Shown: one piece after another, positions 6,161-49,742 of the stretch
Layout: each line of letters begins with the position of its first letter
How positions within the stretch are numbered: the first letter of the stretch is position 1
Assembly: GCA_030390025.1 (NCBI GenBank)
Contig: JASTWF010000808.1
Span: 1 to 64,000 of the forward strand
Reading direction: 5' to 3'
Source: Squalus acanthias
Lineage: Eukaryota
Length of the DNA stretch: 64,000 nt
The notes under the pieces: model-generated
What the model was told of the DNA's origin: nothing
Seen by the model: the letters and a program-made list of their open reading frames with translations, nothing else
Databases searched by the model: none
Program-made: the position numbers and the translations under genes

Positions 6161-8227
6161 AGATCTAATCTCCTCTGGAGATCTTCCCCCATGGCCGCCA
6201 ACCTCATAGTTCTCCAACCCCGCACAGCCCGCTTCTACCTCCTTCCCAAGATCCACAAACAGGACTGCCCTGGTAGACCCATCATTTCAGCCTGTTCTTG
6301 CCCCACGGAACTTATCTCTTCCTATTTCGACTCTATTTTTTCTCCCCTTGTCCAGTCTCTTCCCACCTACATCTGCGACTCTTCCTGACGCCCTCCGCCA
6401 CTTTAACAGTTTCCAGTTTCCTGGCCCCAACCGCCTCCTTTTCACTATGGATGTCCAATCCCTCTACACCTCCATCCCCCACCAGGATGGCCTGCGGGCA
6501 CTCCGCTTCTTCCTTGAACAGAGGCCCAACCAGTCCCCATCCACCACCATCCTCCTCCGCCTGGCTGAACTTGTTCTCACATTGAACAACTTCTCCTTTG
6601 ACTCCACTCACTTCCTCCAAATCAAAGGTGTTGCTATGGGAACCCGCATGGGTCCTAGCTATGCCTGCCTTTTCATGGGATATGTGGAACACTCTTTGTT
6701 CCAGTCCTACTCGGGTCCCCTCCCTCACCTCTTTTTCCGGTACATTGATGACTGTATCGATGCCGTTTCCTGCTCTCGCCCTGAACTAGATAATTTCATG
6801 CACTTTGCTTCCAATTTCCACCCTTCCCTCACCTTCACATGGTCCATCTCCGACTCTTCCCTTCCCTTCCTCGACTTCTCTGTCTCCATCTCTGGGGATA
6901 GGTTATTGACAAACATTCACTACAAGCCCACTGACTCCCACAGCTACCTGGACTACACTTCCTCCCACCCCGCCTCCTGTAAGGACTCTATTCCATTCTC
7001 CCAGTTTCTCCGTCTCCGCTGCATCTGCTCTGATGATGCCACCTTCCATACCAGTGCTTCCGACATGTCTTCCTTTTTCCTCAACCGAGGGTCCCCTCTA
7101 CAGTGGTTGACACGGCCCTTGAGCGTGTCCGTTCTATCTCCTGCACTTCTGCCCTCACCCCTGCCCCTCCCTCCCGGAACCACGATAGAGTTTTCCTTGT
7201 CCTCACCTTTCACCCCACTAGCCTTCACATTCAACGGATCATCCTCCGCCATTTCTGCCACCTCCAGCGTGATCCCACCACCAAATGCATCTTCCCCTCA
7301 CCTCCCCTTTCAGCATTCCATAGGGACTGCTCCCTCCGCGACACCCTAGTCCACTCCTCTATCACCCCCAACACCCCATCCCCTTTGCCCGACACCTTCC
7401 CATGCAAGCGCAGGAAATGCAACACATGCCCTTATACCTCCCCCCTTCCCACTGTTCAGGGCCCCAAACACCCCTTCTAGGTGAAACAGCGATTTACTTG
7501 TACTTCTTGCAATTTAGTATACTGTATTCGCTGCTCACGATGTGGTCTCCTCTACATTGGGGTGACCGCTTTGCGGAACACCTCCATTCAGTCCGTAAGG
7601 GGGACCCCGAGCTTCCGGTCGCCTGTCACTTTAATTCACCGCTCCATTCCCACTCAGACCTCACCGTCCTCGGCCTCTTGCATTGTTCCACGGAAGCTCA
7701 GCGTAAGCTCGAGGAACAGCACCTCATCTTTCGATTAGGCACTTTACAGCCTTCTGGACTCAACATAGAGTTCAACAATTTCAGATCATAACCTCGGCTC
7801 CTATCATATATATATTTTTTATCCACACTCTTTGGCTGTCTTTTCTTTTCTTCTCCCCCACATGGCAGCTGTCTTTTATTCTGCCAGCGCAATTTACACT
7901 TCATCGAGCCATCCTTTGTTTCTTAACCTGTCTCATTACCATCTCCTTTTGCCTTGAATATCTCTTAAAGTCTCTTAACTTCTCCTGCCTTCTATCCTAT
8001 CACAGACCTTCCCTTTTGTTCTTTCATCCCCTCCCCCATTTCCCAGCCCCCACACTTGCTTAAAAATCTGTTCCATTTCCTGTTTTATTCCAGTTCTGAC
8101 GAAAGGTCATCGACCTGAAACGTTAACTCTGCTTCTCTCTTCACAGATGCTGCCTGACCTGCTGAGTGTCTCCAGCATTTTCTGTTTTTATTTCAGATTT
8201 CCAGCATCTGCAGTATTTTCTATTTGT
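6161..8227 (+). mobile_element. Penelope-like element (RT + GIY-YIG), 5'-truncated, TSD attagaca
   Basis: LPKIHK, MDVQSLYT, GVAMGT, RYIDD, HYKPT RT motifs; LVYCIRCSRCGLLYIG endonuclease; attagaca at 6153-6160 and 8228-8235. Confidence 0.92.
8092..8128 (+). ncRNA. Minimal hammerhead ribozyme-like motif in Penelope 3' end
   Basis: agtt-CTGACGA-a-AGGTC(atc)GACCT-GAAAC-GTT-aact. Confidence 0.65.
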
Positions 8228-8402
8228 ATTAGACAGGAGTCTTTTGGTTGATATGTATTTCTGAGGTCCTTTGCCTTTCCAGGTGGAAGTTAAAGGCCCA
8301 CTATACTATCCTCAACAAAATTCCTCTCGCAACCAACACCACCATAAACAATTAATCCTAGGGTCGAAATCACTACTGGCGACAATGGTTGATGAATACT
8401 TA

Positions 8403-9176
8403 GGTCTGGAGTTTCTGCTTGTAATCTGCCCAGATATGAGCGCAATGTGGGCGGAATCGAATGAAGTTGCACAAAAATCGTGGAATTTAAAACATAACTG
8501 AGTTACGTCCATTACTATTTACTCTCGAGTTTCCACAATCGTTTACGCTGCTTCAAAAGTCAATTCACCCAAAACAGTCCCCGCCCACAAAACCGGCCAC
8601 CCTAACCCCCCCTCCCAGGTCGCCATGGCGAGTTTCCACCGATTTCGCCCATTTGGGGGTTGTTCATCACATTGCGTCCAAAACTTCGGCCGCACAGGTA
8701 CCCGTGGTCACATTTGTCCATCGTAAGTGACCTGCAGCTCCAGCGACCAGCGGTCAATTAAAGCCCCTCTCAGCTCTGCCTCTCATACTGAAACTACAAT
8801 TACTTTAAATTACTTTACATTCAGTTGAAATGAGTCTAAATTGAGTCAATGGATCTGCCCTTGGTACAGAATCCCTGTGACCAGCAATCAATTGAAACCA
8901 CTGATTGGCCTGTTTCTTCAATTTCCTGAACACATTTGCAGTTTCAATTAGTTGAATTCAATAATCCTGAGGCCCCACTGCCCATGGTCCAGTCATGAAT
9001 CGATTACGATCGATAACGCTGCCCGATTGCGCTGATTCATGGGAGATTTTACGTTCAGGCTTTGAGAATGAGTTTGAACGGAAACTCGGGCGTATGTTCA
9101 CCTCAGCAAAACTAGTGCAATTTCCAGCGCATTTTGAGCGCTTTCCCGATTGTGCCCCTCACAGAAACTCCAGGCC
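8403..9176. mobile_element. PIF/Harbinger-type MITE
   Basis: TIR ggtctggagtttctg / cagaaactccaggcc (1 mismatch), TTA on both sides (8400-8402, 9177-9179). Confidence 0.85.
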
Positions 9177-9613
9177 TTAATGTTTTCCTAAGACATTCTT
9201 CAATAATCATTTGTGGTGTAATGTATTTTAAGATATTAGGATGAGATAATTTGCTATATACATTGTATTTTAGTTTTATGAATGAGTAACGGTGTCAGTT
9301 TAAACAATGGAAAACAGATGAATTCAGAAAAACAGTGTGAATCTTCTGTAAATAGAAAATCCTGGTCCTTGGTCCAGCCCAGTCCCATATCTCAGATACA
9401 ATCCAAGGCCAGCAGGACTCCTATTCCCCATTAATGCCCCTACCCTAACCTCAAACCAATCACACATCAATCAGAACACTACATCTTAAAGAGGGAGTAC
9501 CAGCATCAATGTGTGTGACCTGAGAATACCTTGTTCTGTCTGTGATAGTGTTTTGGATCAGTTTGTTTGAACAGTGTGATCATGAAAAATAGGCTGAGGA
9601 TACTGGCCATAAC

Positions 9614-9757
9614 ACAGTAGGGAGATTGATCAGAACCATACGAGACACAGCTGTCAATACAGGGCACTGTCTGGGAGGGGTTAGTGGGGTAACACTGTGA
9701 GGGAGATTGATCAGAACCATACGGGACACAGCTATTAATACAGGGCACTGTCTGGAG
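9614..9757. repeat. Two-copy tandem repeat (period ~80 bp)
   Basis: gggagattgatcagaaccatacg.gacacagct...aatacagggcactgtctgg occurs twice. Confidence 0.8.
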
Positions 9758-9995
9758 GTGAGAGACAGGGATCAGAGAGAGATGGATGTGAGAAGTGGCG
9801 AGGCTGAGAGAGAGGTGGGGGTGAGGGAGATTCGGGGGTGAGGGAGAGGCGGGGGTGAGAGAGGCCGGGATATTACAGAGATCGCCTGTGACTGCCAGAA
9901 ATGATCTGGAGCCACAAGCATTGAGTCTGGTCATAACAACAGAAAACACTGGAAAAACTCAGCAGGCCAGGCAGCATCCGTGGAGAGAGAAACAG

Positions 9996-10032
9996 AGTTA
10001 ACGTTTCAGGTCGAAGACCTTTCGTCAGAACT
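9996..10032 (-). ncRNA. Minimal hammerhead ribozyme-like motif in Penelope 3' end
   Basis: Reverse complement reads agtt-CTGACGA-a-AGGTC(ttc)GACCT-GAAAC-GTT-aact. Confidence 0.65.
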
Positions 10033-12534
10033 GGAAAAAAGCAGTAAATGAAATAGATTTAAGGCAAGGATAAAGCTGGGAAAAGGGGGAGGGGATGAAT
10101 GAACAAAAGGAGAGATTAAGAGACATTGAGAGACATTAAGAGATGATCAAGGCAAGAGGTGGTGTTAATGTGACAGGTTAAGGCTAAAAGAAGTGTGAAA
10201 TGCACTGGCAGAATGAAGGACAGCTGCCAGCTTCTGGGAGAAAAAAAAAAGGGGGGCCAAACAAAAGGGTGGATGAAAAAATAAAATAAAATATAAATGT
10301 GATAGGGGCTGAGGTTATGATCTAAAATTGTTGAACTCGATATTGAGTCCAGAGGCCTGTAGCGTGCCTAAACGAAAGATGAGGTGCTGTTCCTCGAGCT
10401 TACGCTGAGCTTCTGTGGAACAGTGTAATAGGCCGAGGATGGTGAGGTCAGAGTGGGAGTGGAGTGGAGAATTAAAGTGACAGGCCACCGGGAGCTCGGG
10501 GTCCCCCTTACGGACTGAACGGAGGTGTTCCACAAAGCGGTCACCCAATCTGCGTTTGGTCTCCCCAATGTAGAGGAGACCACATCGTGAGCAGCGAATA
10601 CAGTATACTAAATTGCAGGAAGTACAAGTAAATCGCTGTTTCACCTAGAAGGGGTGTTTGGGGCCCTGGACAGTGGGAAGAGGGGAGGTATAAGGGCATG
10701 TGTTGGATTTCCTGCGCTTGCACGGGAAGGTGCCGGGCGAAGGGGAAGGGGTGCTGGGGGTGGTAGAGGAGTGGACTAGGGTGTCACGGAGAGAGCGGTC
10801 CCTGCGGAATGCTGAAAGGGGAGGTGAGGGGAAGATGCGTTTGGTGGTGGGATCACGCTGGAGGTGGCGGAAATGGCAGAGGATGATCCGTTGAATGTGG
10901 AGGCTGGTGGGGTGAAAGGTGAGGACAAGGGGAACTCTATCGTGGTTCCAGGAGGGAGGGGCAGGGGTGAGGGCAGAAGTGCGGGAGATAGAACGGACAC
11001 GGTCGAGGGCCATGTCGACCACAGTCGAGGGGAATCCTCGGTTGAGGAAAAAGGAAGACATGTCGGAAGCACTGGTATGGAAGGTGGCATCGTCAGAGCA
11101 GATGCAGCGGAGATGGAGAAACTGGGAGAATGGAATAGAGTCCTTACAGGAGGCGGGGTGGGAGGAAGTGCAGTCCAGGTAGCTGTGGGAGTCAGTGGGC
11201 TTGTAGTGAATGTTAGTCCATAACCTATCCCCAGAGATGGAGACGGAGAAGTCGAGGAAGGGAAGGGAAGAGTCAGAGATGAACCATGTGAAGGTGAGGG
11301 AAGGGTGGAAATTGGAAGCATAGTGAATGAAATTGTCTAGTTCAGGGCGAGAGCAGGAGACGGCACCGATACAGTCATCAATGTATCGGAAAAAGAGGTG
11401 AGGGAGGGGACCCGAGTAGGACTGGAACAAAGAGTGTTCCACATATCCCACGAAAAGGCAGGCATAGCTAGGACCCATGCGGGTACCCATAGCAACACCT
11501 TTGATTTGGAGGAAATGGGTGGAGTCAAAGGAGAAGTTGTTCAATGTGAGAACCAGTTCAGCCAGGCGGAGGATGGTGGTGGTGGATGGGGACTGGTTGG
11601 GCCTCTGTTCAAGGAAGAAGCGGAGCGCCCTCAGGCCATCCTGGTGGGGAATGGAGGTGTGGAGGGATTGTACGTCCATAGTGAAAAGGAGGCGGTTGGG
11701 GCCAGGAAACTGGAAACTGTTAAAGTGGTGGAGGGCGTCAGAAGAGTCACGGATGTAGGTGGGAAGAGACTGGGCAAGGGGAGAAAACATAGAGTTGAGA
11801 TAGGAAGAGGTAAGTTCCGTGGGGCAAGAACAGGCTGAAGCGATGGGTCTACCGGGGCAGTCCTGTTTGTGGATCTTTGGAAGGAGGTAGAAGCGGGCTG
11901 TGCGGGGTTGGGTAACTATGAGGTTGGCGGCCGTGGGGGGAAGATCTCCAGAGGAGATGAGGTCAGTGACGGTCTTGGAAATGGTGGTTTGATGTTCGGT
12001 AGTGGGGTCATGGTCCAGGTGGAGGTAGGAGGAGGTGTCGGAGAGTTGGCGTTCAGCTTCTGCTAGGTAGAGGTCGGTACGCCAAACAACAACAGCACCA
12101 CCCTTGTCAGCAGGTTTAATGACAATATCGGGGTTGGATCTGAGGGAATAGAGTGTTGCAAGTTCAGAGGGAGGTAGGTTGGAGTGAGAGAGGGGAGCAG
12201 AGAAATTGAGACGGCCGATGTCACGCCGGCAGTTGGCAATGAAAAGATCTAGAGAGGGTAAGAGGCCAGAGGGAGGGGTCCAGGTAGAACGGGAATTCTG
12301 AAAGCGGGAGAAAGGGTCAGCCATGCGGGGGGAAGACTCCTGGCCAGAGAAGTGGGCACAGAGGCGAAGGCGGCGGAAAAAGAGCTCCGCATCGTGCCGA
12401 GCTCGAAATTCATTGAGGTGGGGGGCGTAAGGGGATGAAGCTCAGGCCTGTGCTGAGGACTGATCGTTCGGGGTCAGAAAGGGGAAGGTCAGAAGGGATA
12501 GTGAAAACGCGGCAGGGGGTGAGATAGGGAGAAG

Positions 12535-12790
12535 GGGGGTCAGAGGAAAGTGAAGGGGAAGAAGGTTCTGGAGGGAGATTGGGAGAATGGGGGTCAGAGG
12601 AAAGTGAAGGGGAAGAAGGTTCCGGAGGGAGATTGGGAGAATGGGGGTCAGAGGAAAGTGAAGGGGAAGAAGGTTCCGGAGGGAGATTGGGAGAATGGGG
12701 GTCAGAGGAAAGTGAAGGGGAAGAAGGTTCCGGAGGGAGATTGGGAGAATGGGGGTCAGAGGAAAGTGAAGGGGAAGAAGGTTCCGGAGG
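12535..12790 (-). repeat. 54-bp tandem repeat (~4.7 copies) in the Penelope 5' coding region
   Basis: Encodes (PPEPSSPSLSSDPHSPNL)n in frame with PCRVFTIPSDLPLS. Confidence 0.9.
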
Positions 12791-12802
12791 GAGTCTGGTC
12801 AT

Positions 12803-15471
12803 CCCCTTTCTAACTACAGAATGAGCAGTGTGGGCAGAAACTGTGGCTGCAGGTCCTCATTGCAGTAGGTGGCAGTCTGCCCCATTGCCTCTTCATGAAG
12901 CGCATTCTCCTAATACACTTCTCCTCAGTAAGGTCCTTGTATGACCTGTGCGCCCTCTAGATTGAATGGGTGGGTGCAATAGCTGGTGAGCTGTATCCTC
13001 CTTAAATTCTGCCTCACTCTCCATTGCCCCATCCCTCCTCCTCCTGCTCCTCCATGATAAACTCATACAAAGAATGCCCACAGGGAATGGCGCTCCTGCT
13101 CGAGAGAATCCCTCACTGTGGGTGGGGAGGGGTCAACACATGCCAGTGATCTCACACCCCGCGGGCAGTCAGAAGCAAGACGCTGGAAATAATCGTTCCA
13201 GAAAGTGGTTTTCAGCTGCAGAAATGGCTGCTCAAACTCTCCACACGCTTCAGGCTCAGAAACTCTCACTTCCCCTGTCTCAGCTGATCCTGGCAACAGC
13301 TGTGCCTTATTCCTCTCAGTCTAACTTACCCTGAGTGCATTTCCAGTGTAACAGCAGGAAATTCAGGGGGCAGTGCCACTAAATGTATTGTTATTTGCTG
13401 GGTGGGGACGACTCTGCGAGTGGATCATAGGAAGGACTAAATTGTGTTTGGAAACTCAGGAGGAATTTTGGGGCACCAAACCAGTGTAAACAGCTTCTTC
13501 CCCTTTTCGCTGGCCAATCAACTGAGTTGTTCCAATTTTAGGCCCAGCAATACCAAAAATGGCACAGAATTTCAGGACCATTGGGATTACAACACACAAG
13601 GAGGCCGCTTGGTCCATTGGAGTACAGGTTCAATGGGCTGAATGGCCTCCTTCAACAGTCACCTCTCCTCATCTTCAAAAGCCTCTTCAAAATCGAACAC
13701 TTCAACCATTCCTTTGGTCACCCCCCCCCCCCCCCCATTACTCTTCTAACTTATCCTCAGTGCCCAATCCCTTGCAAACAACCTTGGAGGTGAATACTCT
13801 CTGAGTTTCTCTCGCTCCCCCGCCACAACTTTGGCCAAAGTTCGGTGATCTAGGCTTGCACCGATGATCCGGTGGTGGAGCAGGAGGAACGCTGAGGAAA
13901 TTCACCCCCTTGAGATGTTTCACTGTGTTAAAGTATGAGTGTCAGCTGGTGGTCTTAATGAGATCAGTGCTTCTGTTCCCTGATGCATCCAATGCGATAA
14001 GAGTGAATTGTGCTGACAATATCAACCTATTTCAGACTGTCACAAATAAATTCTAGTCGACAACTAGTGACACCTCTCTGCTCCACGTCTCATTGGTTAA
14101 TAGTGGAGATGGGGGAGGAGTTATTGTTGAGCAGATCAACAGTTTATTGCTTTGTTCAACCAGTTTATAACATGGTTTGAACCACATCCAGGGACTTTCC
14201 AGTTATCACTTCCTTAAGACTGAACAGTCCCTTCCCAGTACAATGTGCATTGCTGGTTTGGTCATTTAAAGCTGGTTTCACAATCGGTGCAGGAAAGGTG
14301 CCTTTGTTAACCGTTTACAGCCCAGTGTTTATCTTCAGGAGAACTTTTAACCAGGCAGACACTTTGATTCCCTGCAATCCCCCATCCTGATCTCTACCCT
14401 GCGTTCTCTTCAGTGGAAACAGTGAGCCCGATGACCCTTCATGTGGTGGCATTGCTGTCGTTGGATCGATGTGGTGCGGTGTGTTGAGGCTGTGAAACAG
14501 TGTCGATAGCCATGGTTGAAAGGGATAGCCCTTGTCCCCGAGCAGCCATCTTGTCTTTTCTGCCTTCCTGAGGTTGAGTTTGATGAAGTTTCTTCAATTG
14601 TAAGGCAAAGTGCTCAAACTGAGCATTTAGTGAACAGCCACAACACTCTGAAGCCAACAAGCCCAGTTACACTCAGGTGCAGCTGATCTGAGTGACCGCA
14701 GCTCGCGTTCACTAAACATTCTCCAGAAAACCCCGCCAGGGTGTCCCTAACGGGGTGTTTTTTTTAACAGTGGTGTCAGACTGAGAATTACATTCGCTGG
14801 CCCTGATTTATATGGTGTCTGTGTGACCCTCGCCTGCCAGCTGCGGGATCCTCGCCTCACTTGAAAGACGGTTATTATAAAATGCCCCCAGGTGGGAATG
14901 GAGTGGCCTACAATGGACTTGGGGTATTTACATATCAATTAAAGATTCCTGTCTAATGATGCAGCCCTGCCTCAGTACTGCACTGCAGTGTCAGTCTAGA
15001 AACCTCAGTATGTGGATTGGACCTTAGGCACAATCACTGGGGAGGGTTGAGAGGGGTGTGTCACATCCCCACACTACAATTTCTTTTGGCGTGGATTATG
15101 TCCCCTCATCACATCCCAGTTGCTTAATCTTCCCCAAACATTTCATCTGATAAAATTAACAACTGTCCAATTCAAAGCTGAGAATTACAAATTGAGCCAT
15201 CCTGCCACACACTTCACTCCACGTAACAACAGTTCCAAATGTCGTGCTAGTTAATGTTTGAGGGATTCAACACTAAGGATCTAGAATTGGGATTTGGGAT
15301 CTGAAGATTGGGAATGCAATATTCCAATGGGGATTCTACTGATGTCTGAAGACAGTTCTTCAGGCTCTTCGGGATGGACGGAACCATAGGGAACAAGTTC
15401 CGGGAATGATTTATAATCTATTGAAGTATGCGACTAGTCTGAAGGAGGCATGGACAAGGAGACGAGGGCTC
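12803..15471. repeat. Local segmental duplication, copy B (direct part 12803-14429, inverted part ~14925-15471)
   Basis: Direct sequence match to 4213-5630 and reverse-complement match to 5626-6160 + 8236-8255. Confidence 0.9.
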
Positions 15472-20090: not shown

Positions 20091-20427
20091 TGCAGACAGA
20101 AGGTCTTGCGATGCCTATAATGGGAGAGCAACATCTCGGCTGTAGCTCCTTTGTCAGAACGGAGAATTGCCAGGTAAGAGAGCTCTTTATTGGAAAATGA
20201 ATGAAACGCAGGGAGAGAGATAATTGGTAGAATGGACAGGCAGCTTTTTGAAAGCTAGAAAGAGATGAAAACTGCTAAAGATCACCACAGTGAGGCAATT
20301 AAAAACATTAAAAGAAATGGAAAACAGCTGCATAAGGAAAAGAAGAAGAGAAAATACTGGGACACCCAAAAGATTTCTTTATTTCACCCCTCGCTCATTC
20401 ATTTATTTGAATGTAACTATTGAAATC

Positions 20428-20562
20428 AGTTCTGATGACAGGTCATCGACCTGAAACGTTAACTCTGTTTCTCTCTCCACAGATGCTGCCTGACCTGCTG
20501 AGTATTGCCAGCATTTTCTGTTTTTATTTCAGATTTCCAGCACCCGCAGTTTTTGGATTTTG
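20428..20562 (+). mobile_element. Solo Penelope 3'-end derivative carrying a hammerhead-like motif (20428-20464)
   Basis: agtt-CTGATGA-c-AGGTC(atc)GACCT-GAAAC-GTT-aact followed by the same tail as 8129-8220. Confidence 0.75.
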
Positions 20563-21988
20563 ATTCATTTGGGGTGAGATTGGTCCACACCAGTCGCGTG
20601 AAACGGGCTCTTAGTGAATTGGCCGCCCGTTTTACACCGCGCCCCATTCTCTTCTCCAATTAAATGAACAGAAAAGAAAATGGGACGCGGTATAAAACCA
20701 TTCTCTATTGGTCCACACCAGGAGTTTCACGCTCCAATTTCACCCCCAATGTTTGTAACCCGATTAATGAGAGAATGTAAAACTCCTCCTATAGGGGGAG
20801 ACATTGTAAAGCCACTGTGTTTATCACAGGATGAAGTTCAGCTTTGAATACTCTGCGTGAGTTTGGGTTAAACACTTGTCCCGGTAACCGCTGATCTCAG
20901 CCAAGCCGTGCTCTGATTGACTACTGGTGTAATCTGGATTATCTATTCAAGCAGCAATTCAGGGCATTTTCAAGTGAAACCAGTTACTCAAGGGGATTCC
21001 CATTCTGTAATGATCTGGAGGAACTATCAGCTTCCCCAGTCACAAACTGCAGGAACAGACCGCATATTGAGACGCTGCCACAGTGTCTGAGTCTTTGTCA
21101 CACTCTCTGCATTCATTGGGGTACAAATTGGACTTCAGCTGTAGAGCAAAACAGGCAATATTTTATTTCATCCCAGCCTCACTGACTCATTGAGCTCAAT
21201 GGAAAAGAAAATGTGATGGCGTGTAAAACGGGCCGCTGATTCGCTATTGTCCATTTTGCACTACCGGCCAAAACAGATTTCTACATTTTCACTGCCCCAA
21301 ATCTGCTGATTTAAACTTTGTAGTTGATCAGATGGGGCTGATTTAATGGCATTATGCCCACTGCCAATGATGAGAATCAAAGTGACATGTCCATTAATAT
21401 TCATTAACTCATTCTGACCCTCCCAACCCATCACCTGTACAACCAGTGTCAGAAAAACATCAGAATTTCTCAATCGATAATGGTCTGACTCGTTGTTGGA
21501 TGTACTCGGGGTGGAGTGGGTTAGACCGACTCTAGTCATTCATCTCTTGGATTCATATCCAACCTCGACTAATAGGCTGAAGCTTTCTCCTGACTGTTGT
21601 CTGCAATGGTCTATTCAAAGCTAGTGTGAACACTCTCACCCCAACTCTCAGCCTAAAACTGCACTAGTTCAGCGTTAGTGACAATCTCAACTCAAACAGG
21701 TTATAGGGGCCTAGAGTATCATCATAACTACCCATGAATAAGACATTTTCCTGCTAGGACTGCCGATCATAATTTTGGGCACAAATTGCTCGTCATTTCC
21801 CATCAAACTTTAATAGACAATAAAACGTCTGCAATGCACACCCAAATTTCCAATAGAAACTCCCAGTGGGTGAAGCTCATTCTTGGATACCGAAGACAAA
21901 AATCTAGGCCAGGATTCCTGGTGTGTGAAAAAAACATCATACTTGTGAGTCGGGGTAATCTTCTGATTTTAGGCAATGTAGCGCAGCT

Positions 21989-23923: not shown

Positions 23924-24023
23924 CTGATGAAACATCATCAACCTGAAACGTTAACTCTGTTTCTCTCTCCACAGATGCTGCCGGACCTGCTGAGTGTTTC
24001 CAGCATTTTCTGTATTTATTTCT
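23924..24023 (+). mobile_element. Solo Penelope 3'-end derivative with degenerate hammerhead-like motif
   Basis: CTGATGA...cctGAAACGTTaact retained, stem II disrupted; same tail as the other copies. Confidence 0.7.
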
Positions 24024-24295
24024 GATGAATACTGTTAAATTAAACAGAATGGATGTGGTGCTTTCCACTCGACCTCTTAGCTGGGAATATGGAATGTTCA
24101 TGGAGGAGAGCAGCAGGCACTGGAGAGAGAGAGTAAAACCATTAACAGAAACTGTTCGGGTCAATACAGATAAACAAATATCTCTTCATATCCAAACATC
24201 TCTACTTAAAAAAGATCTTCATTTCACTGCAATTATTTCTGAAATAAAGCAAGCTCAAGGCTCATTCGTGAAATTCAGAGCAGGCTTGCATTTCA

Positions 24296-24338
24296 CCTGG
24301 AAACAGCTGATGAGGGAGATCTCAGTTTGTGATTGGCT
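24296..24338 (+). promoter_or_regulatory. MHC class II X box / Y box promoter module
   Basis: cctggaaacagctg (X1-like, 24296-24309), a 19-nt spacer, then gtgattggct (Y box, inverted CCAAT), about 150 nt upstream of the ATG. Confidence 0.8.
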
Positions 24339-33500: not shown

Positions 33501-36500
33501 AGCCACGGATGGCTGTCATTTCTTTTACACCCTTTTTTCCTCAGTGGAATATATATTTTTTGAAAGTTGTAAAATAACTCCTTAAATGAACACCACTGCT
33601 CATGTACCGTCTTACCCTTTAATCTATTTTCCCAGTCCACTTTAATCAATTCCGCTCTCATACCATCATAGTCTCCTTTATTCAAGCTCAGTACGCTTGT
33701 CTGAGAACCAACCTTCTCACCCTCTAATTAGATATGGAATTCAACCATGTTATGGTCACTCATTCCAAGGGGATCCTTAACTAGGACATTATTAATTAAT
33801 CCTGACTCATTACACAGGACCAGGTCCAAGGTTGCTTGCCCCCTTGTAGGATCAGTTACATACTGCTCAAGAAATCCATCCCTAATACACTCAATAAACT
33901 CTTCCTCAAGGCTGCCCTGCCCAATTTGATTTGTCCAGTTAATATGATAGTTAAAATCCCCTATAATTATAGCTGTTCCCTTATTACATGCCCCAACTAT
34001 TTCCTGATTAATACTTCTTCCAGCAGAGTTGCAACTATTAGGAGGCCTATATACTACTCCCACTAGTGTTTTTTTCCCTTTATTATTCCTTATCTCCACC
34101 CAAACTGTTTCATTATCCTGATCCTTTGACCTAATATCATTTCTCTGTAATACAGTGATTCCTTCCTTTATTAACATAGCTACCCCACCCCCTCTTCCTT
34201 CCTGTCTGTCCTTCCTGATTGTTAAATACCCTGGCATATTTAATTCCCAGTCGTTGTCACCCTGCAGCCATGTTTCTGTAATGGCCACAAGATCATACCC
34301 ATACGTAGTTATTTGTACCGTCAATTCGTCTATTTTGTTACGAATGCTGCGTGCATTCAGATAAAGAACTTTAAATATGTTTTGTGACAATTTATTCCTG
34401 CTTTTACCCCCTTTACTACTTTACCTTTATCTTTATATATTCTGTCCCTTCCTGACACGCTCTGGTTTTTAATTACCCCACTGCTACTTTGCTCTATTGC
34501 CTTCTCCGCTGACATTTTTATTTTTTGCTCTCTTGAAACCTCCCCCCCACTAATTAGTTTAAAGCCCTCTCTACAGCCCTAGTTATTCGATTCGCCAGGA
34601 CTCTAGTCCCAGCACTGGCCAAGTGAAGTCCGTCCCAACAGAACAGCTCTCTCCTGTCCCAGTACTGGTGCCAGTGTCCCAGGTAGCAAAACCCATTTCT
34701 CCCACACCAGTCTTTGAGCCACGCATTTAACCCTCTGATTTTATTTACCCTAGCCAAATTTGCTCGTGGCTCAGGTAGTAATCCAGCGATTACTACCCTA
34801 GAGGTTCTGTTTTTTTAATTTGGCCCCTAGCTGCTCATACTCCCTCAGCAGAACCTCATTCCTTGTTCTATCTATGTCATTGGTACCAACATGGACCACA
34901 ACAACTGGATCTTCCCCCTCCCACTCCAAGTTTCTCTCCAGCCCAGAGGAGATGTCCTTAACCCTGGCACCGGGCAGGCAACATAGCCTTCAGGACTCGC
35001 TCTCGGCTGCAAAGAACCCTATCTATCCCCTTAATGATACTATCCCCTACCACTACAACATTTCTTTTTACTCCCCCCACTTGAATGGCTCCCCGTACCA
35101 CAGTGCTGTGGCCAGGTTGCTCATCCTCCCTGCAGTCCCTGCTCCCGTCCTCACAGGGAGTAAGAGCCTCGAACCTGTTGGACAAGAGCAAGGGCTGCGG
35201 CTCCTCCAACACTACCTCCTGGATCCCCGTACCTGCCTCACTCGTAGTCACACCCTCCTGTCCCTGATCATGGGCTACATCTGAATTAGTTAATCTAATT
35301 GGTGTGACTACCTCCTGGAACACAGAGTCCAGGTAACTCTCCCCCTCCCTGATGTGTCGCAGTGTTTGAAGCTCGGACTCCAGCTCATCAACACGGAGCC
35401 GGAGTTCCTCGAGCAGCCAACACTTACTGCAAATGTGATCACCGTGAACATCAATGGTGTCCTCCAGCTCCCACATATTGCAGCAGTAACACATCACCTG
35501 CTCTCCCATTCTATGTAATTAATTAAATTTATTATTATTTACCCTTTAATTAATTTAAATTAAAACAATACACTTCTGTGACAGTTTGATCTGAGTCTCT
35601 TCACTCTCCGTCCTGTGGCAGTTTGATCTGAGTCTCCTCACTCCGTCCTGACAGTTTGTTCTGAGTCTCCTCACTCTCCGTCCTGTGGCAGTTTGTTCTG
35701 AGTCTCCTCACTCTCCGTCCTGTGGCAGTTTGATCTGAGTCTCCTCACTCTCCGTCCTGTGGCAGTTTGTTCTGAGTCTCCTCACTCTCCGTCCTGTGGC
35801 AGTTTGATCTGAGTCTCCTCACTCCGTCCTGACAGTTTGATCTGAGTCTCCTCACTCCGTCCTGTGACAGTTTGTTCTGAGTCTCCTCACTCCGTCCTGT
35901 GGCAGTTTGTTCTGAGTCTCCTCACTCCGTCCTGTGGCAGTTTGTTCTGAGTCTCCTCACTCCGTCCTGTGGCAGTTTGATCTGAGTCTCCTCACTCCGT
36001 CCTGTGGCAGTTTGTTCTGAGTCTCCTCACTCCGTCCTGTGGCAGTTTGTTCTGAGTCTCCTCACTCCGTCCTGTGGCAGTTTGTTCTGAGTCTCCTCAC
36101 TCCGTCCTGACAGTTTGATCTGAGTCTCCTCACTCCGTCCTGTGGCAGTTTGAGCCGGGCCCACACCCAGTGAATGGTCCTGTCTGTCTGATCTGTCCAT
36201 TCCCCTCTGTTCCATAGTTCTGTCTAATCTGTCCATTCCCCTCTTCCATAGTTCTATCTGATCTGTCCATTCCCCTCTGTTCCATAGTTCTATCTGATCT
36301 GTCCATTCCCCTCTGTTCCATAGTTCTATCTGATCTGTCCATTCCCCTCTGTACAGTAGTTCTCTGATCTGTTCATTCCTGTGTACAGTACTATTTGATC
36401 TGTCCATTCCCCTGTGTACAGTAGTTCTATCTGATCTATCCATTCCCGTGTACAGTAGTTCTATCTGATCTGTCCATTCCTGTGTACAGTAGTTCTGTCT

Positions 36501-39500
36501 GATCTGCCCATTTCCCTCTGTTCAGTAGTTCTATCTGATCTCTCCATTCCTGTGTACAGTAGTTCTCTCTGATCTGTCCATTCCTCTGTGTACAGTAGTT
36601 CTATCTGATCTGGCCATTCCCCTTCCCAATGTCCAATTCAAGATGGCTCCTGGGTGAGCTGCTCCCTCTGGCGCTCCTTTGCTGTGCACCTCTATCCATT
36701 GCCATCCTTTCCCTTTTCTCCCCCAATTTCTTCTCTTCCGCTGTTTACGTTCCCCTGTCTATAAGCGTGGGTGTATTTTAGCCCCAACAACAGATTCCAG
36801 CTGCAAGTTTAAAGTTACCTAGTTCCTCCTGCCCAACTCCCGACACTGCCCATCGCCTAACCCTGCCCGATGCCCAGCCTCTGCCCCTGCCTGCTCTTTG
36901 TTTTCCTCAGTGAGCACTGGGTCTTTGCTCAAATTTGTCTTCATAATTCCTGGACTTCTCCGGTCACCAAGACTACCCTTCTCCACGGGACTGCACTGTA
37001 AGACTCAGCTGCTGTGACTCTGATCTGCTGCTCAGTTGCTTCAGTTTTAAGGTAACTTTGTCGGGCCTACAGCCCCTCCCCACCGCTGCTGTTACCTGCT
37101 GAGCTTATGACTGTCCGACTGCTCCCACTGGTTTTTCAGCTTTATTTTGTTAGTCTGGTTCCTGGCCAGAATTTCACTCTCGTGGGCCGCAGTCCATTCT
37201 CCGCCACTTCTGGATCTTATGGTGACCTCTAAGCTCACCACCGTTTCTCTGCCCCGCGATCGATTCTGCACACCTCCTGGATCTTCATTACCACGGAAAT
37301 ACCTCCATCAGTGGGTCCTCCGATACTCAACCCTTCAAATAGCTTCTGGCTCACTCACCCTCCACACCTGTCTCCGAACCTGGACATCAGTTTGTTGATG
37401 CTCCAAGCTGACTCCACCCTATCTACATCAACTTTATCCCACCACAGGACCTCTGACTTTAACTCTGGACTGTTTGCTATTGTCTCCTCTCTCTTCCCTG
37501 TTTATTATCAGGACATATCTATCCTAATCTTGCTACATAGCCAGGCCTATATAATTTGTTTCCCTGTGTCTATGCGCGACGTGCTTTGGCTGCCCCTCTG
37601 GAGCTGAGCCCATCACTTCTACTTCCACTTTATTATTTTCTCTACCCCTCCTAGGCCCCTCTCTCCTCTCCCAAATCCCTACCCCAATCCTTAAACACTC
37701 CTCGACCTTCCTACTCTCCTGCCGGCATCCTAGGCTTGACTCCCTCTGTGCCTCTCTTGGCATCCTCTGAAGGGTCCATCGAGGCACTCTTCACTGCCTC
37801 CTTACGAGCAGCAACCCCAACTGCCCCATCCACTCCCAACCCCAACACTCGCACCAACCTTCCCGTCCCACTTGCCCCTCCCAATGCTGATCCCGTGGAC
37901 CGTGCCTGGGGATTTTCTATGACCGCCCCTCTCCGCATCTCCCTCCAGAATGTCCATTCACTTGTGAACAAGGCCCTTGCCATCCAGGACCGTATTGTGG
38001 ATGATTGCATCAACATCATGGCCTTGACGGCAACCTGGCTGACTGATAATGACACCTTCCCCCTTAATGAAGCCTCTCCTCCTGGCTGTACCTTCCACCA
38101 CTTGCCCTGACCAAACCATGGCAGTGTGGCTCTTAAAAATCACACCTTGGCCGGCCCCCCTACTCCTGACACCTTCTCCTCCTTTGAGCATCTCACCTTG
38201 TTCCACCCCTTTTGCCTCATTTAAAATCTTCGTTCTCTACTGCCCACCCAAGTGCAACCCAAGTATCTCCGAGATATCTTCACTGGTTTCCTCCCTCAGC
38301 CTCTGTACCGAGCGACTTCTCATCCTCGGTGACTTCAACCTCCATCTCAACTCATCATGCTTCCTCTCCTCTGAGTTCACCACCCTCCTATCCTCCCTTA
38401 ATCTCTCCCTCCATATAAACTCTCCTACCCGTGTTAGAAGAGCATGCCAGGAGCAGCACCAGGCGTACCTGAAAATGAGATGCCAACCTAATGAAGCTTC
38501 AAAATGGGACTACATGCGTGCTAAGCAGCATGCTATAGACAGAGCTAAGCGATCCCATAACCAACAGATCAGATCAAAGCTCTGCAGTCCTGCCACATCC
38601 AGTCGTGAATGGTGGTGGACAATTAAACAACTAACGGGAGGAGGCGGCACCATGAACATCCCCATCCTCAATGATGCTGATCCCAGCATTTGAGTGCAAA
38701 AGACAAGGCTGAAGCATTAGCAACCGTCCTCAGCCAGAAGTGCCGAGTGGATGATCCATCTCGGCCTCCTCCTGAGGTCCCCACCATCACAGAAGCCAGT
38801 CTTTAACCAATTCGATTCACTCCACGTGAAAAAGAAACGGCTGAGCACACTGGATACAGCAAAGGCTGTGGACCCCAACAACATCCCGGCTGTTGTGCTG
38901 AAGACTTGTGCTCCAGAACTAGCCGCGCCTCTAGCCGAGCTGTTCCAGTACAGCTACAACACTGACATTTATCTGACAATGTGGAAGATTGCCCAGGTGT
39001 GTGCTGTCCACAAAAAGCAGGACAGATCCAATCTGGTCAATCTACTCTCAATCATCAGCAAAGTGACGGAAGGTGTCGTCGACAGTGCTATAAAGCAGCA
39101 CTTACTCACCAATAACCTGCTCACAGATGCCCAGTTTGGGTTCTGCCAGGACCACTCGGCTCCAGAACTCATTGCAGCCTTGGTCCAATCATGGACAAAG
39201 GAGCTGAATTCTAGAGATGAGGTGAGTGACTGCCCTTGACATCAAGGCAGAATTTGACCGAATGTGGCATCAAGGAGCCCTAGTAAAATTGAAGTCATTG
39301 GGAATCGGGGGGGAAACTCTCCAGTGGCTGGAGTCATACCTAGCACAAAGGAAGATGGTTGTGGTGGTTGGAGGTCAATCGTTGACTGTTGAGGTTAATG
39401 GGTGAAAAACGGTGAACTGCTGAGCCCTGGTGAAGAGGGTGTCTGTGATCTGCTTAACTGAGCTGTGTATTGCAGGCTGGGAGAAATCCCCTGTGACAGA

Positions 39501-41900
39501 GTAGAAAGAAGTTAAGGGCTGTGGTGAAACGGAGAGCCACAGGCAAAGTGTGGTCCCCCTGGACCAGCAGTCAGCAGGTGCTGTTGCAGGAGGTTGCAGA
39601 GGTCTGAGACAGACTGGAGAAGCACGATCTCCTCCTGCACTGCTGCTCAGATGGTGACTGGGCCTGAACACCCTGTGTGCTGGGTATGGCCTCCTAGCAT
39701 AGCTCCACCTCACTGGTGTCTCTCTGAAAGCTTCTAAAGCTGCTACTGATCATCTTCCTCCATCTAATAAATAAGTGGCAATAATCGCACCCCTAATGAT
39801 GACAAAATGTTTGAGGTAAAGTAAAGGAAAAAAGTGGTTAAGAAGCAGTCTGGAAGCTGGAGACTCTCTTAATGAACCAGAACACTGAAGGTCCAATGAC
39901 TCACTAAGCTGCAGCTGTATGCCCCTTTTATACTGCCTCAGACTTCTAGTCGCATTGGGCGGGCCTCCCATTTTGGCGGGATAATATCGTGTTGCGGCAT
40001 TGGGCTATAACTTTTGCATTTAAAGTAGGCCCCCATCTGGTTGGGGAGGGCTCCTAGTTAAATGGGGAGGTAGAAACGCGCCAGTGACCCCCACCCGCAA
40101 TTATAACAACCCACCGACCTGGTCAGGCTGGGTTAGAATCAGGGCTCTAGAGTGAGAAAGGTTCAGGGTAACACCTACTCTTCACGTTCTTAACCTGATG
40201 TGGCTTGTAGATGTGTTTCTCCTTCTTTTGGATTATTTACAATTTTTCTTTTTTTTTTGCATCTTGTATACTCTCTGGGATACTCCTTATATATTTATCC
40301 TGATGTGTATATAATTGTTTATATTGTATAATAGACCTCTTATGTGTCCCACCTTTTTCACAGTTCACCCTGATGTCTCTGTGTACTCTGAAGACCTTGT
40401 AGAATGGGGATGGTCCAACACGTTGATCTGTCTGGCTGATGGATTCTACCCTCCGCACATCACCATGGAGTGGAGAAGAAACAATGAACCCATGAGTGAT
40501 GGAGACTACATCACAGAGTTCTATATTAAAGAGGATTTTTCATTCCGGAGGTTCTCGTACCTAAGCATTGTCCCGAGTCCTGGAGACATGTACTCCTGTC
40601 ATGTGAAGCATGAGAGCCTGGAGGAGCCAACTACTGTATTCTGGGGTCAGTGAGAGTTTTGATTATAAACTGACATCAGCACTAGTTTAAAATAGACTTT
40701 TGTGCAACATTTTAACTTAATTTGCAAAAGACAAAACTGCAAATGCAAGAAATCTGAAATAAAAACAAACAATAGAAATGCATGTTACTGGTAAGGAGAA
40801 TAGACAGGTTATGACCTTTTGAGTGTTTAGCCCTTAGAATCATAAATTCTTAGAAATTTACGGCACAGAAGGAGGCCATTCGGCCCATCGTGTCTGTCGG
40901 CTGAAAAAGAGCTATCCAGCCTAATTCCACTTTCCAGCTCTTGGTCCATAGCTTTGTAGGTTGCAGCACTTCAAGTGCATATCCAAGCACTTTTTTAATG
41001 TGTTGATGGTTTCTGCCTCTACCACCCTTTCAGGCAGTGAGTTCCAGACCCCCACAACCCTCTGGGTGAAAAAAGTTCTCCTCAACTCCCCTCTCATCCT
41101 TCTACCAATTACTTTAAATCTATGCCCCCTGGTTAGTGACCTCACTGCTAAGGGAAATAGGTCCTTCATATCCACTCTATCTAGGGCCCTCATAATTTTA
41201 TACGCCTCAATTAAATCTCCCCTCAGTCTCCTCTGTTCCAAAGAAAACAACCCCACCCTATCCAATCTTTCCTCAGCTAAAATTCCCCAGCCCAGGCAAC
41301 ATCCTTGTAAATCTCCTCTGCACCCTCTCTAGTGCAATCACATCTTTCCTGTAATATACTGACCAGAACTGCACGCAGTACTCTAGCTGTGGTCTAACTA
41401 GTGTTTTATACAGTTCAAGCATAACCTCCTTGCTCTTACTTTCCTTTATTAGCTGAGGCATAGAATGTATCCCGTATGCCTTCTTAACCACCTTATCTAC
41501 CTGTCCTGCTACCTTCAGGGATCTGTGGACATGCACTCCAAGGTCCCTCTGATCTTCTACACTTCTCAGTATCCTACCATTTATTGTGCATTCCCTTGCC
41601 TTGTTAACTCTCCCCAAATGCATTACTTCACAATTCTCTGGATTGAATTCCATTTGCCATTGTTCTGCCCACCTGACCAGTCCATTGATATCTTCCTGCA
41701 GTCTACAGTTCTCTCACTATCAATGGTATCATTCCTTTCTTTCTTCTTATACAGATCAGGAAGTACCTGAGGAAAAGTCTGGTCCTGGGACAGTGATCTG
41801 TGCTCTGGGACTCACTCTGGGAATCATCAGTGCTGTTGTAGGGATCATCTTGCTGATCAAAGAGAGACAGCGGCAGCAAGCTCAGCAACAGGGCATCTAA
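24491..41900 (+). CDS. DAA: MHC class II alpha chain, 4 coding exons join(24491..24557,30195..30443,40364..40645,41755..41900), 247 aa
   Basis: Exons of 67+249+282+146 = 744 nt splice through three phase-1 GT-AG introns into one open frame: leader MEAGHYFTVFALVLIHGAWAGK, alpha1 YLYDYTQVYFVQ...FYMDFNLKKEVARIPEF...NIAILKQNL...NLS, C1-set alpha2 NTLICLADGFYPP...YSCHVKH, TM ICALGLTLGIISAVVGIILL and a short tail. It closely resembles shark class II alpha as I recall it; the symbol follows shark DAA nomenclature and orthology is not established. Confidence 0.96.
24600..25670. repeat. Intron-1 minisatellite, 14 units of ~71-85 bp with variable (attat)n
   Basis: Unit atcctgatctcactggggtcggtgtggtgttattacagggagtgcaggctgtgagttattat... 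Confidence 0.95.
25880..26710. mobile_element. MITE-like element (same family as 55573-56430)
   Basis: gggcccgattttgcggt / accacaaaatccgggcc inverted ends; shared internal gcggtcagca.cgaag, ccaatca and aggaagtg. Confidence 0.65.
27190..27940. repeat. ~29-bp minisatellite ccaataatggaacacccggtgc(c)n; resumes at 29803-29978
   Basis: About 25 copies before and about 6 after a CR1 insertion. Confidence 0.95.
27942..29799 (+). mobile_element. CR1 LINE 3' half inserted in the minisatellite; contains an antisense CR1 tail at ~29125-29235 flanked by cttag
   Basis: Long RT frame ([32 protein letters not shown]) and attctatg tail. Confidence 0.93.
30195..30443 (+). CDS. DAA: MHC II alpha exon 2 (alpha1 peptide-binding domain)
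   Basis: (tc)n-ttccag acceptor; gtgaga donor at 30444; two Asn in NIAILKQN, NLS sequon, no alpha1 cysteines. Confidence 0.96.
30470..31371. repeat. 38-bp GC-rich minisatellite (~24 units) immediately 3' of exon 2
   Basis: Unit ccgggcccacacccagtgaatggggcctggggtttgag; one orphan unit at 36148-36180. Confidence 0.95.
31372..35515 (-). mobile_element. Near full-length CR1 LINE (ORF1 zinc-finger/esterase, ORF2 APE + RT) with few disruptions
   Basis: CYCCNMWE..HICSKC and VVVVGDSII in ORF1; LNARSI, TETWL, GDFN, SDH in APE; complete RT; about 4 stops/frameshifts. Confidence 0.95.
35575..36150. repeat. ~35-37-bp minisatellite ctgtggcagtttgttctgagtctcctcactccgtc
   Basis: About 16 copies. Confidence 0.95.
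36181..36622. repeat. ~35-bp minisatellite ctgatctgtccattcccctctgtacagtagttctat
   Basis: About 12 imperfect copies. Confidence 0.9.
37700..38430 (+). mobile_element. LINE (L2-like) AP-endonuclease fragment
   Basis: LQNVHSLVNK, MALTATWL, LYCPPK, ILGDFNLH. Confidence 0.75.
38435..39385 (+). mobile_element. LINE (CR1/L2 group) ORF2 fragment of a second family
   Basis: SSREWWWTIKQL, LKTCAPELAAPL, WKIAQV, LLSIISKV, QFGF. Confidence 0.8.
39390..39720 (-). mobile_element. Harbinger transposase N-terminal remnant
   Basis: RRPYPAHRVFRP... and a downstream ALNF/GxFQ-like region, degraded. Confidence 0.5.
40364..40645 (+). CDS. DAA: MHC II alpha exon 3 (alpha2 Ig C1-set domain)
   Basis: ctttttcacag acceptor; 282 nt; LIC..GFYPP..W..YSCHVKH motifs; gtcagt donor at 40646. 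Confidence 0.96.
40850..41705 (-). mobile_element. CR1 LINE 3' fragment filling most of intron 3
   Basis: MEFNPENCEVMH, LVRPQLEYC, FFTQRVVGVWNSLP. Confidence 0.92.
41755..41900 (+). CDS. DAA: MHC II alpha exon 4 (connecting peptide, TM, cytoplasmic tail, stop)
   Basis: Pyrimidine tract + acag acceptor; CxxGxxxG TM motif; TAA at 41898-41900; gtaagt donor at 41903. Confidence 0.95.
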
Positions 41901-45394: not shown

Positions 45395-45660
45395 CGGGAT
45401 ATTGGTTGAGGAATAAATATTGGCCAGGACACCAGGGAGAACTCCCCGACTCCTCTTCGAATAGTTCCATGGGATCTTTTACGTCCACCTGAAACAGCAC
45501 ATGGGGTCTAGGTTTAACGTCACATCTGAAAGACAGCACTTCCCTCAGTACTGCACTGGAGTTTGTCTGTTTGTTTCTTTTTGTGCTCAAAGTCTCTGGA
45601 TTTTTGACTTGAACCCACAACCTTCTGACTCCGAAGGGAGAGTGCTACCACTGATGCCTA
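45395..45660 (-). mobile_element. tRNA-derived SINE (Deu-domain-like)
   Basis: Reverse strand has A/B-box-like cagtggtagcact...gggttcaagtc and caggtggacgtaaaagatcccatgg; related pieces at ~6030-6150(+) and ~23077-23170(-). Confidence 0.65.
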
Positions 45661-46690: not shown

Positions 46691-47305
46691 GTGTTCAAGT
46701 TTTCTTTTACAATATAACAAGAAAAACAAATATAATGTGACTACTACAATAAAATGAGATTTTAAAATAAGTGAATCATTGGATGACAATAAATAGCGTA
46801 AATGAACTTTGATTTCTTGGAGACACTTGGCTGGGTGAAAGACCCTTTGGATACTGGATAAAAGGGCCAAGTCAGCATTAATGCAGTCTGAGTATTGACC
46901 AATGCACTCTAGCTCATCAAACTGGACTAGTAGGCCTAAGCACTCAGTCATAAGGTGCCAAATTCTGCAATTAAAATAAAAATTACCAGCTAGTTGAGAC
47001 TCGCACAGAGAATGTTTGATCCTCATTGCATTTATTCACTTTAGTCAATTGCATGTAAATTGGTTCCACACTGAAATTGCCGATCTTAATCAGATGTTTG
47101 CTCCCTCAAACCTCCTCACCCATTTAGAACAGGTGTTGCTGGGATTTCCTGTTCTGGCCAGTAGAAGTATGATTCTTGAAGGGGTGGTTCACAGTTTAAG
47201 ATAGTGTTTAATCTTTTTTGTGCTTTTTTAATCTTGCTGCATCTGCATTTGCTTTGGTGCCTTGCTTTCTGCTGCTGCATTTCTGCATTTTTCTTTTTGT
47301 TCTTG

Positions 47306-48523: not shown

Positions 48524-48632
48524 TAAGATGGTGTTTATTCTTTTTCGTGCTTCTTGCTTTGCTGTATCTGCATTTGCTTTGGTACCTTGCCTTCTGCTGC
48601 TGAATTTCTGCATTTTTTTTGTTTTGTTCTTG

Positions 48633-49605
48633 GGAAGTGGGCATCGCTGGCAAGGCTGCTTTCTGCACCCCCCTGCCCATTTCTAGTTGCTTTGAGAAGG
48701 TGGTGGCATGTCTTCTTAAACTGTTGCAGTCCGTGTGGTGAAGGTACTCCCACAATTCTGTTAGCTAGGGAGTGACAGGTTTTTGACCCAGAGACGATGA
48801 AGAAACGGACAATATATTTCCAAGTCAGCATGGTGTGTGACTTCGAGGGGAACTTGGAGGTGTTCCAATGCTACTGCTGCCTGTGGCCTTCTAGGTGGTA
48901 AAGGTCACGGGTTTGGGAGGTGCTGCTGAAGAAGCTTTGGCGAGTTGCTGCAGTGCATTCTGTAGATCATATACACTGCAGCCACGGAGCACCGTGGTGG
49001 AGGGACTGGATGTTCAGCCTGGTGACCGAGATTCTATTCAGGTGAACTGCTCTGCCCTAGTTGGTGTGGAGCTTCTTGAGTGTTGTTGCAGCTGCACCCC
49101 TCCAGGCAAGTGGAGAGTATTCCATCAAACTCCTGACTTGAGCCTTGTAGGGGGTTAGTCACTCACTGTAGAATGCCCAGCCTCTGACCTGTTCTAGTAG
49201 CCATGGTGTTGATATAGGAGCGTATAGCACAGAAGGAGGCCATTCAGCCCATCGTGCCTGTGGCAACTCTTTGAAAGAGCTATCCAATTAGGCCCACTTA
49301 CCTGCTCTTTCCCCATAGCCCTGCAAATTTTTCCCCCATCCAATTCCCTTTTGAAAGTTACTATTGAATCTGCTTCCACCACTTTCAGGCAGTGCATTCC
49401 ACATCATAACAACTCGCTGCGTAATTTTTTTTTCCTCATGTCTCTTCTGGTTCTTGTCAATTATCTTAAATCTGTGTCCTCTGGTTACTGACCTTTCTGC
49501 CACTGGAAACAGTTTCTCCTTATTTACTCTATCATGATTTCTGAACACCTCATCAAATCTCCCCTTAACCTTCTCTGCTCTAAGTAGAACAATCCCAGCT
49601 TCTCT
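48633..49605 (-). mobile_element. Adjacent LINE 3' fragments (CR1/L2-group 48633-49210; CR1 49222-49605)
   Basis: GVPSPHGLQQFKK..HHLL and TQRVVMMWNALP motifs. Confidence 0.75.
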
Positions 49606-49606
49606 A

Positions 49607-49742
49607 ATACAAAAGCAAAATACTGCGGATGCTGGAAATCTGATATAAAAGCAGAAAATGCTGGAAATATTCAGCAGGTCAGGCAGCATCTGTGGAGAGA
49701 GAAACAGTTAACGTTTCAAGTTGCTGACCTTTCATCAGAACT
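49607..49742 (-). mobile_element. Solo Penelope 3'-end derivative with hammerhead-like motif (49706-49742)
   Basis: Reverse complement agtt-CTGATGA-a-AGGT(cagca)ACTT-GAAAC-GTT-aact plus tail. Confidence 0.72.

Follow-up and report, generated by a model that had tools for sequence, protein, structure and literature searches.

Hammerhead motifs in the end repeat of a Penelope-like element of Squalus acanthias and the shared 5' boundary of its short copies

A 64,000-nucleotide (nt) stretch of the Squalus acanthias genome (GenBank assembly GCA_030390025.1, contig JASTWF010000808.1, positions 1 to 64,000 of the forward strand; hereafter the window) carries five motifs that resemble minimal hammerhead ribozymes, two at the ends of Penelope-like elements (PLEs) and three on short solo copies. 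What are these solo copies, and what sets their 5' ends? A sequence-only reading of the window had proposed a non-autonomous family, delimited by its ribozyme and mobilised by the PLE. We find that end-repeat copies in two PLE families stop preferentially at the 5' edge of ribozyme stem I, and that in the family seen in the window copies containing the start of the open reading frame (ORF) rarely do so. In the explanation we consider probable, an abundant PLE carries the motifs, as minimal type I hammerheads, in its end repeat, and the solos are short cDNAs that were started in the 5' repeat of the element RNA and ran off the RNA end at stem I.

Positions within the repeat are counted from C3 of the hammerhead core, which is 0; stem I starts at -4, and cleavage is predicted between +28 and +29. 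The copies in the window are as follows.

6162..8232 (+): 5'-truncated PLE, subfamily A, long tail, with a broken reverse transcriptase (RT) and GIY-YIG ORF, CX4CX2C linker, 3' untranslated region (UTR) and hammerhead
8092..8128 (+): hammerhead 1, minimal, intact; predicted cut after 8124
9935..12790 (-): 5'-truncated PLE, subfamily B, short tail
9996..10032 (-): hammerhead 2, minimal, intact
20428..20560 (+): solo end repeat 3, long tail, starts at stem I; hammerhead 3 at 20428-20464
23924..24020 (+): solo end repeat 4, short tail, starts at about C3; broken hammerhead 4
49603..49742 (-): solo end repeat 5, long tail, starts at stem I; hammerhead 5 at 49706-49742, stem II damaged
40726..40773 (-): remnant of an old tail of this family (48 bp), no hammerhead, absent from the sequence-only reading

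The five motifs lie at the coordinates and on the strands first given for them, and their number is far above chance: the core pattern matches five times where 0.46 matches are expected, a count never reached in 100 shuffles. A stricter structural descriptor (core, stems I and II, and pairing 15.2-16.2) accepts copies 1, 2, 3 and 5, fails copy 4, and finds nothing in 50 shuffled windows. All five have CUGANGA, GAAA and NUH in type I order, and helices I and II can form fully in copies 1-3, partly in copy 5 and not in copy 4, where stem I is absent, stem II is broken and the sequence begins at C3 or 3 nt ahead of it. Differences among copies 1-3 are confined, as originally described, to N7, the extra base and loop II (the extra base C of hammerhead 3 could pair with core G12). 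The formula first quoted for the motif fits these three; copy 5 also deviates, with stem II reduced to four pairs and one C-A mismatch. Stem III is palindromic and lacks a loop, but the working palindrome is the 4-mer ACGU and not AACGTT, because A14 and U17 are core positions in the established numbering. A scan of the window against Rfam returned no hammerhead match at E up to 5, and only eight weak unrelated matches. Genome-wide, the 32-nt core has at least 29,748 exact matches, and its reversed control none.

Upstream of hammerheads 1 and 2 we found matches to RVT_1 (E 2e-4 and 2e-6, below the cut-off) and GIY-YIG (E 9e-5, above the cut-off). Between RT and endonuclease lies a zinc-finger-like motif, CKRRKCNTC in copy 1 and with one Cys lost in copy 2; such a CX4CX2C linker marks the Neptune/Nematis type in the part of the source available (PMC8557442). 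Hits in the Atlas carry no clade name. Further hallmarks of endonuclease-positive PLEs are present, namely partial tandems (pseudo-long terminal repeats, pseudo-LTRs), an inverted arm, an optional tail and target-site duplications. The two elements are 89% identical and face each other tail to tail. The first is bracketed by an 8-nt duplication (6153-6160 and 8228-8235) and the second by a 12-nt one (9923-9934 and 12791-12802), whose target stands as a single, empty site in another copy of the host repeat (4170-4240). Together, the structural descriptor and the RT/GIY-YIG matches uphold, on sequence grounds, the view of the five motifs as minimal type I hammerheads that belong to the end repeat of an endonuclease-positive PLE. 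Solos 3 and 5 do begin at stem I; copy 4 spans about 100 bp and not the roughly 140 bp first given for the solos. Solo 4 has a 7-nt exact target duplication, the sole one among the window solos; no flanking duplication of 6 nt or more was found at solo 3 or solo 5. At solo 3 (window 20422-20570) and at one sampled locus (L058), a short inverted match joins the flanks in place of a direct duplication; solo 3 recurs with shared flanks on contigs C3751 and C30.

We determined 5' ends in an unbiased sample made up of 140 pieces, each 10 kb long, taken from the 20 largest contigs at preset coordinates (1,398,500 called bases, 1.4 Mb). An anchor downstream of the ribozyme retrieved 63 copies of the family seen in the window (family 1); 61 were kept at 88% identity or more, and 55 of these start at +45 or earlier. 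In a few cases the anchor overlooked a copy or the call was wrong (L031, at -3; L182; one arm in L195; L147). The 3' ends form two groups, about +97 and +132. Random 5' truncation among solos, which the sequence-only reading had named as evidence against itself, is not what we observe: 5' ends pile up at the edge of stem I, with 21 of 47 copies at risk ending in -8..+10 (rate ratio 8.0, p 6e-10) and a hazard there of 0.029 per base compared with 0.003-0.006 elsewhere. Copies without paired inverted arms behave alike (13/35, ratio 8.1). The edge of stem I lies 33 nt upstream of the 5' end that cleavage is predicted to leave (+29), and the cut-site zone +24..+33 has no excess of family 1 ends (3 seen, 1.8 expected). 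Long-tail and short-tail copies stop at the same 5' position; the boundary therefore does not reflect a fixed cDNA length.

The structural descriptor also found a second PLE family in the sample, with its own minimal hammerhead (L035:2891-2928, L067, L053 and L179, and 35 anchored copies); no copy of it was found in the window. Its stem I reads UCAC/GUGA or UUAC/GUAA, it has G10.1-C11.1, and its palindrome is AGCU where family 1 has ACGU; the GIY-YIG region, present at three anchored copies, is 32-41% identical. Here 11 of 32 copies end in -8..+10 (ratio 6.7, p 3e-5), and the cut-site zone again shows no excess of 5' ends (1 seen, 1.0 expected).

Copies that contain the start of the ORF give a different picture. 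The 5' part of the ORF was present in 30 fetched loci, 13 of which extend to the upstream motif copy. Of five full-length junctions inspected, three keep an open frame of 433 codons starting at the core and two are frameshifted; the solo unit therefore comprises the hammerhead and the first 30-45 codons of the frame. An ATG inside the core is the minority state (N7 is C in 38/50 rows), and in-frame ATGs occur at +51 and further on. Thirty loci were fetched with +140..+500 only; seven start downstream of +10, one was a duplicate and 22 were used, one of them ending at -2 and the rest from -29 to beyond -1366. With repeats removed, three fetches contributed 22, 7 and 3 copies, giving 32 independent ORF-start copies, one of which ends in -8..+10, as against the 21/47 terminal copies (Fisher p 2.6e-5). 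The contrast holds in subfamily B alone (1/30 ORF-start and 6/18 terminal copies, p 0.008). A local block to cDNA synthesis should affect both groups, and since ORF-start copies pass stem I, the end of a template is the better reading. Two loci on contig C1 (G000:C1:6988689-6992103 and 7052562-7059142) have same-strand cores 1.6-1.7 kb apart, some with a different upstream variant; these are possibly tandem arrays of an internally deleted element, able to form dimers.

The solos are real insertions. Duplications of at least 7 nt flank 9/28 and 4/9 unpaired copies, compared with about 3% of mismatched pairs, and 9/10 and 5/6 inverted pairs, which supports the view that solos are separate, genuine insertions mobilised by the PLE. 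Inverted pairs always join one long-tail and one short-tail arm (10/10 and 6/6), a pattern expected if priming took place at two sites, on two strands. Both subfamilies contain solos (15/29 copies in A, 6/18 in B), and one solo is identical to a long copy. In a tree of low power (46 rows, 86 columns), solo and long labels change 11 times, at least four changes being forced by well-supported branches, and there is no solo-only clade. Snap-back self-priming at stem I was considered as a source of the pairs and rejected; it predicts inverted arms near -4 and +33, seen in none of ten family 1 pairs. Three older inverted pairs (L060, L144, L146) have GAGAC for GAAAC, which breaks the core, and flanks shared beyond both arms; they are possibly a larger repeat carrying a dead stub.

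We propose that the element's own RT would start inside the 5' repeat of the RNA and run off the RNA end at stem I. A linear RNA beginning there would yield only a stub of 100-140 bp, and long copies would call for a template in which the 3' UTR precedes the repeat, supplied by tandem read-through, a template jump or a circle formed after hammerhead cleavage. The front edge of the family 1 hammerhead reads YYANWYY, which we take to be initiator-like. Because family 2 fits this pattern only in some subfamilies, an RNA end trimmed behind a bound protein is also possible. For the Poseidon element PAc of Anolis carolinensis, the available portion of Frangieh et al. 2024 (PMC11167929) describes in vitro initiation of reverse transcription at two internal sites close to the ORF start, together with a requirement for ORF sequence past these sites, namely the first 172 nt of the ORF.

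Several points weigh against this explanation. The RNA-end step is one we infer, and the in vitro RT work concerns Poseidon and not the present element. The zone -8..+10 was picked after viewing the family 1 data, which leaves family 2 as the only fresh test, and one of the 11 family 2 copies (L108) may reach about -17; the pile-up is 19 nt wide and does not fall on a single base. In exact counts over the whole genome the loss is no more than modest: -11..-1 is kept in 23,768/43,736 cores (54%), compared with 26,571/41,805 (64%) for a 10-nt downstream control, which is crude because subfamily variants are included, and 29,748/41,805 (71%) for 0..+9. The 32 ORF-start copies are the best-scoring, youngest hits, mostly of subfamily B, and their ends were entered by hand. 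Solos do cluster weakly in the tree (11 changes compared with 15.4 for shuffled labels; 8/500 shuffles as low). The ribozyme itself raises two more. Pair 10.1-11.1, usually though not absolutely G-C in minimal hammerheads, is A-U in 34/50 and G.U in 16/50 family 1 rows (G-C in family 2), and the lowest-energy predicted fold of family 1 is an inactive rod that pairs core and cut site and lies 3 kcal/mol lower than the hammerhead shape.

A related scheme, which we consider less likely than not and put forward tentatively, invokes two templates: a linear RNA from the first base of the hammerhead, giving stubs only, and a hammerhead-cut, ligated circle, giving all ORF-bearing copies with their variable pseudo-LTRs. 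If true, the hammerhead would be a switch to productive transposition and the contrast of 21/47 with 1/32 its genomic footprint. A local cause at stem I, whether a finished cDNA hairpin that releases the RT or microhomology of the front edge to the target, would account for a stop that follows the ribozyme in two families of different sequence, and several target duplications do extend into the first bases of the element; yet 31/32 ORF-start copies pass the same sequence, and we regard such a cause as unlikely. The non-autonomous family of the sequence-only reading, SINE-like (short interspersed nuclear element) or retrozyme-like, built on a short RNA of its own that the Penelope protein moves in trans, would explain the fixed 5' and 3' ends, the target duplications on unpaired copies (9/28, 4/9) and the weak clustering of solos, and PLE-derived retrozymes are reported to exist in the accessible part of a preprint (bioRxiv 10.64898/2026.07.22.740005). 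The counts do not support this proposal: there is no excess of 5' ends at the cut site (+29), solos fall in both subfamilies, mixed with long copies and in one case identical to one, no tandem arrays occur among the window copies, and solos carry no ORF sequence past the tail, which the Poseidon protein requires in vitro as far as the available text of PMC11167929 goes. We judge it distinctly unlikely.

Two further routes would place the boundary in the RNA or in the DNA. The edge of stem I could be a splice acceptor (pyrimidine tract, CAG), with solos made from spliced RNA; family 1 reads TTTTTCCAG directly before the last two bases of stem I, and the Drosophila virilis Penelope intron ends at helix I in the part of PMC4209133 available. 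Against this, inspection of solo flanks by eye showed no common upstream exon, and in family 2 the ends pile up just as in family 1 although that position lacks an AG. None of the 15 joints listed (137 more unlisted) in four sequencing runs of contigs, which cannot show starts, was of the GT..AG type and led into the motif. We consider splicing improbable. Recombination between the two end repeats of full-length copies, in the manner of solo LTRs, would retain the target duplication, and recombination or deletion was proposed for some rotifer solo pseudo-LTRs in the accessible part of PMC3846280. Such solos would, however, begin at positions as widely spread as in full-length copies (-29 to beyond -1366), with no pile-up at stem I, and the inverted two-armed stubs would be unexplained, which makes this origin very improbable.

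The excess conservation of the core over its flanks that was looked for among genomic copies is not there: rare changes amount to 3.1% in the core and 2.1% in the flanks in family 1, and 2.7% and 1.1% in family 2, where the search anchor lowers the flank figures and truncated rows raise the core figures. A core that decays like its flanks fits decay after insertion and has no bearing on selection in active lineages. Variants in at least 14% of rows lie at N7, loop II, H17, the flanks and pair-keeping stem positions, and the largest within the core are G-to-A changes in 5/50 rows. Between the two families, the 11 core positions are identical and 8/10 pairs are changed on both sides with none broken, and within family 2 pair 2.3-1.3 swaps C-G and U-A; this covariation comes from two families only and few independent events. 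An active-like family 1 dimer is predicted to be less stable than two inactive monomers (-9.7 and -18.2 kcal/mol, tertiary contacts ignored), and folding z-scores of -0.5 to -2.6 are not informative. Same-strand motif copies in the window are spaced 3.5 to 40 kb apart and do not form tandem hammerhead units, and no window copy has a tandem partner for dimer pairing. Minimal hammerheads in the literature showed no activity as monomers and little as dimers (PMC4209133), and the Poseidon PAc ribozyme was inactive without protein, with no RNA-seq ends at the cut site (PMC11167929), in the parts of these papers available. The ribozyme probably acts with the help of protein and has no activity in dispersed genomic copies.

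Copy 4 lies near a major histocompatibility complex (MHC) class II alpha gene, identified by a PF00993 match at 30047-30487, whose promoter sites, assigned by what we take to be the X-box and Y-box consensus, are not part of the element.

24296-24313 (+): X-box-like site, MHC class II alpha promoter
24330-24336 (+): Y-box-like site, MHC class II alpha promoter

The distance of about 270 bp first given between copy 4 and the X box is right from the 3' end of the insertion (about 24020 to 24296, 276 bp), but the motif itself lies 340 bp away. Three further copies of the promoter, 92-99% identical, occur at G000:C3751:410022 and 53792 and at C30:630645. The presence of copy 4 in each of the four promoters found (identity 92-100%), at 276 bp from the X-box-like site, might suggest co-option as a regulator of this promoter. 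A single insertion before duplication accounts for all four, however; stem I is missing and the ribozyme broken in 4/4, with differing stem II lesions; and at 44-68 family pieces per Mb, some 2-3% of sites have one within 400 bp, so that proximity to MHC II needs no special cause. We give co-option hardly any credence and find no support for a link: the MHC II neighbour is a decayed insertion. Minisatellite arrays lie at 27183-27984, 29811-31463, 24590-24900 and 36027-36521, some of them inside the MHC II alpha gene.

Elsewhere in the window, the 5' end of the second element (12521-12793) consists of tandem copies of a 54-bp segment from the element's ORF. The host repeat occurs in two 98%-identical copies, 4148-4611 and 9868-9934 / 12791-13200, the latter split by the second element; at 3424-3804 is a transposase-like frame, presumably Harbinger-like. 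Many CR1-like fragments are found throughout.

Much of this is familiar, and the comparisons that follow extend as far as the accessible portions of each source. The motifs share with the minimal hammerheads of metazoan PLE pseudo-LTRs (Cervera and de la Pena 2014, PMC4209133) the type I layout, the absence of loop 3, the palindromic 15.2-16.2, the extra base after A9, the short helix I, mostly single dispersed motifs, opposite-strand pairs, and several consensus families with covariation; they differ in a 5-bp helix II and, in family 1, in lacking the usual G10.1-C11.1 pair, and that source names no cartilaginous fish and gives no 5'-end statistics. As in Poseidon PAc (PMC11167929), the hammerhead overlaps the ORF start and the tail is optional, defined there by two internal RT start sites; the linker here is of the Neptune/Nematis type, and no fixed 5' boundary of short copies is reported for PAc. 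Endonuclease-positive PLE insertions (PMC8557442, PMC3846280) likewise have pseudo-LTRs, an inverted 5'-truncated arm, a 30-40-bp tail on one arm only, 8-10-bp target-site duplications and solo pseudo-LTRs, whereas pseudo-LTR length is variable there and no start at the ribozyme edge is described. Animal non-LTR retrozymes (bioRxiv 10.64898/2026.07.22.740005), reported in one chondrichthyan genome, are also non-coding, with a type I hammerhead related to PLE pseudo-LTRs; their definition there asks for tandem repeats in which two or more successive units bear a hammerhead, whereas here single units lie scattered or two are placed head to head. Earlier publications cover the motif class, its occurrence as dispersed single copies, the inverted arms and the tails (PMC4209133, PMC8557442, PMC3846280, PMC2377424, PMC6155905); the part of PMC8782182 available offered nothing on the subject. 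Motifs and stubs of this kind have been known since 2014, and the finding as first written is therefore ordinary. Our literature searches, whose coverage mostly stopped short of subscription papers and of supplements that may list shark motifs, returned nothing on hammerheads of shark PLEs or on 5' ends piling up at stem I.

The role of the PLE hammerhead and the regeneration of pseudo-LTRs are questions for the field, and the contrast between terminal and ORF-start copies at the ribozyme edge makes both directly testable. That contrast is one testable clue to PLE replication: the start at stem I likely shows where the element RNA begins, and the contrast hints that long copies come from longer or circular RNA.

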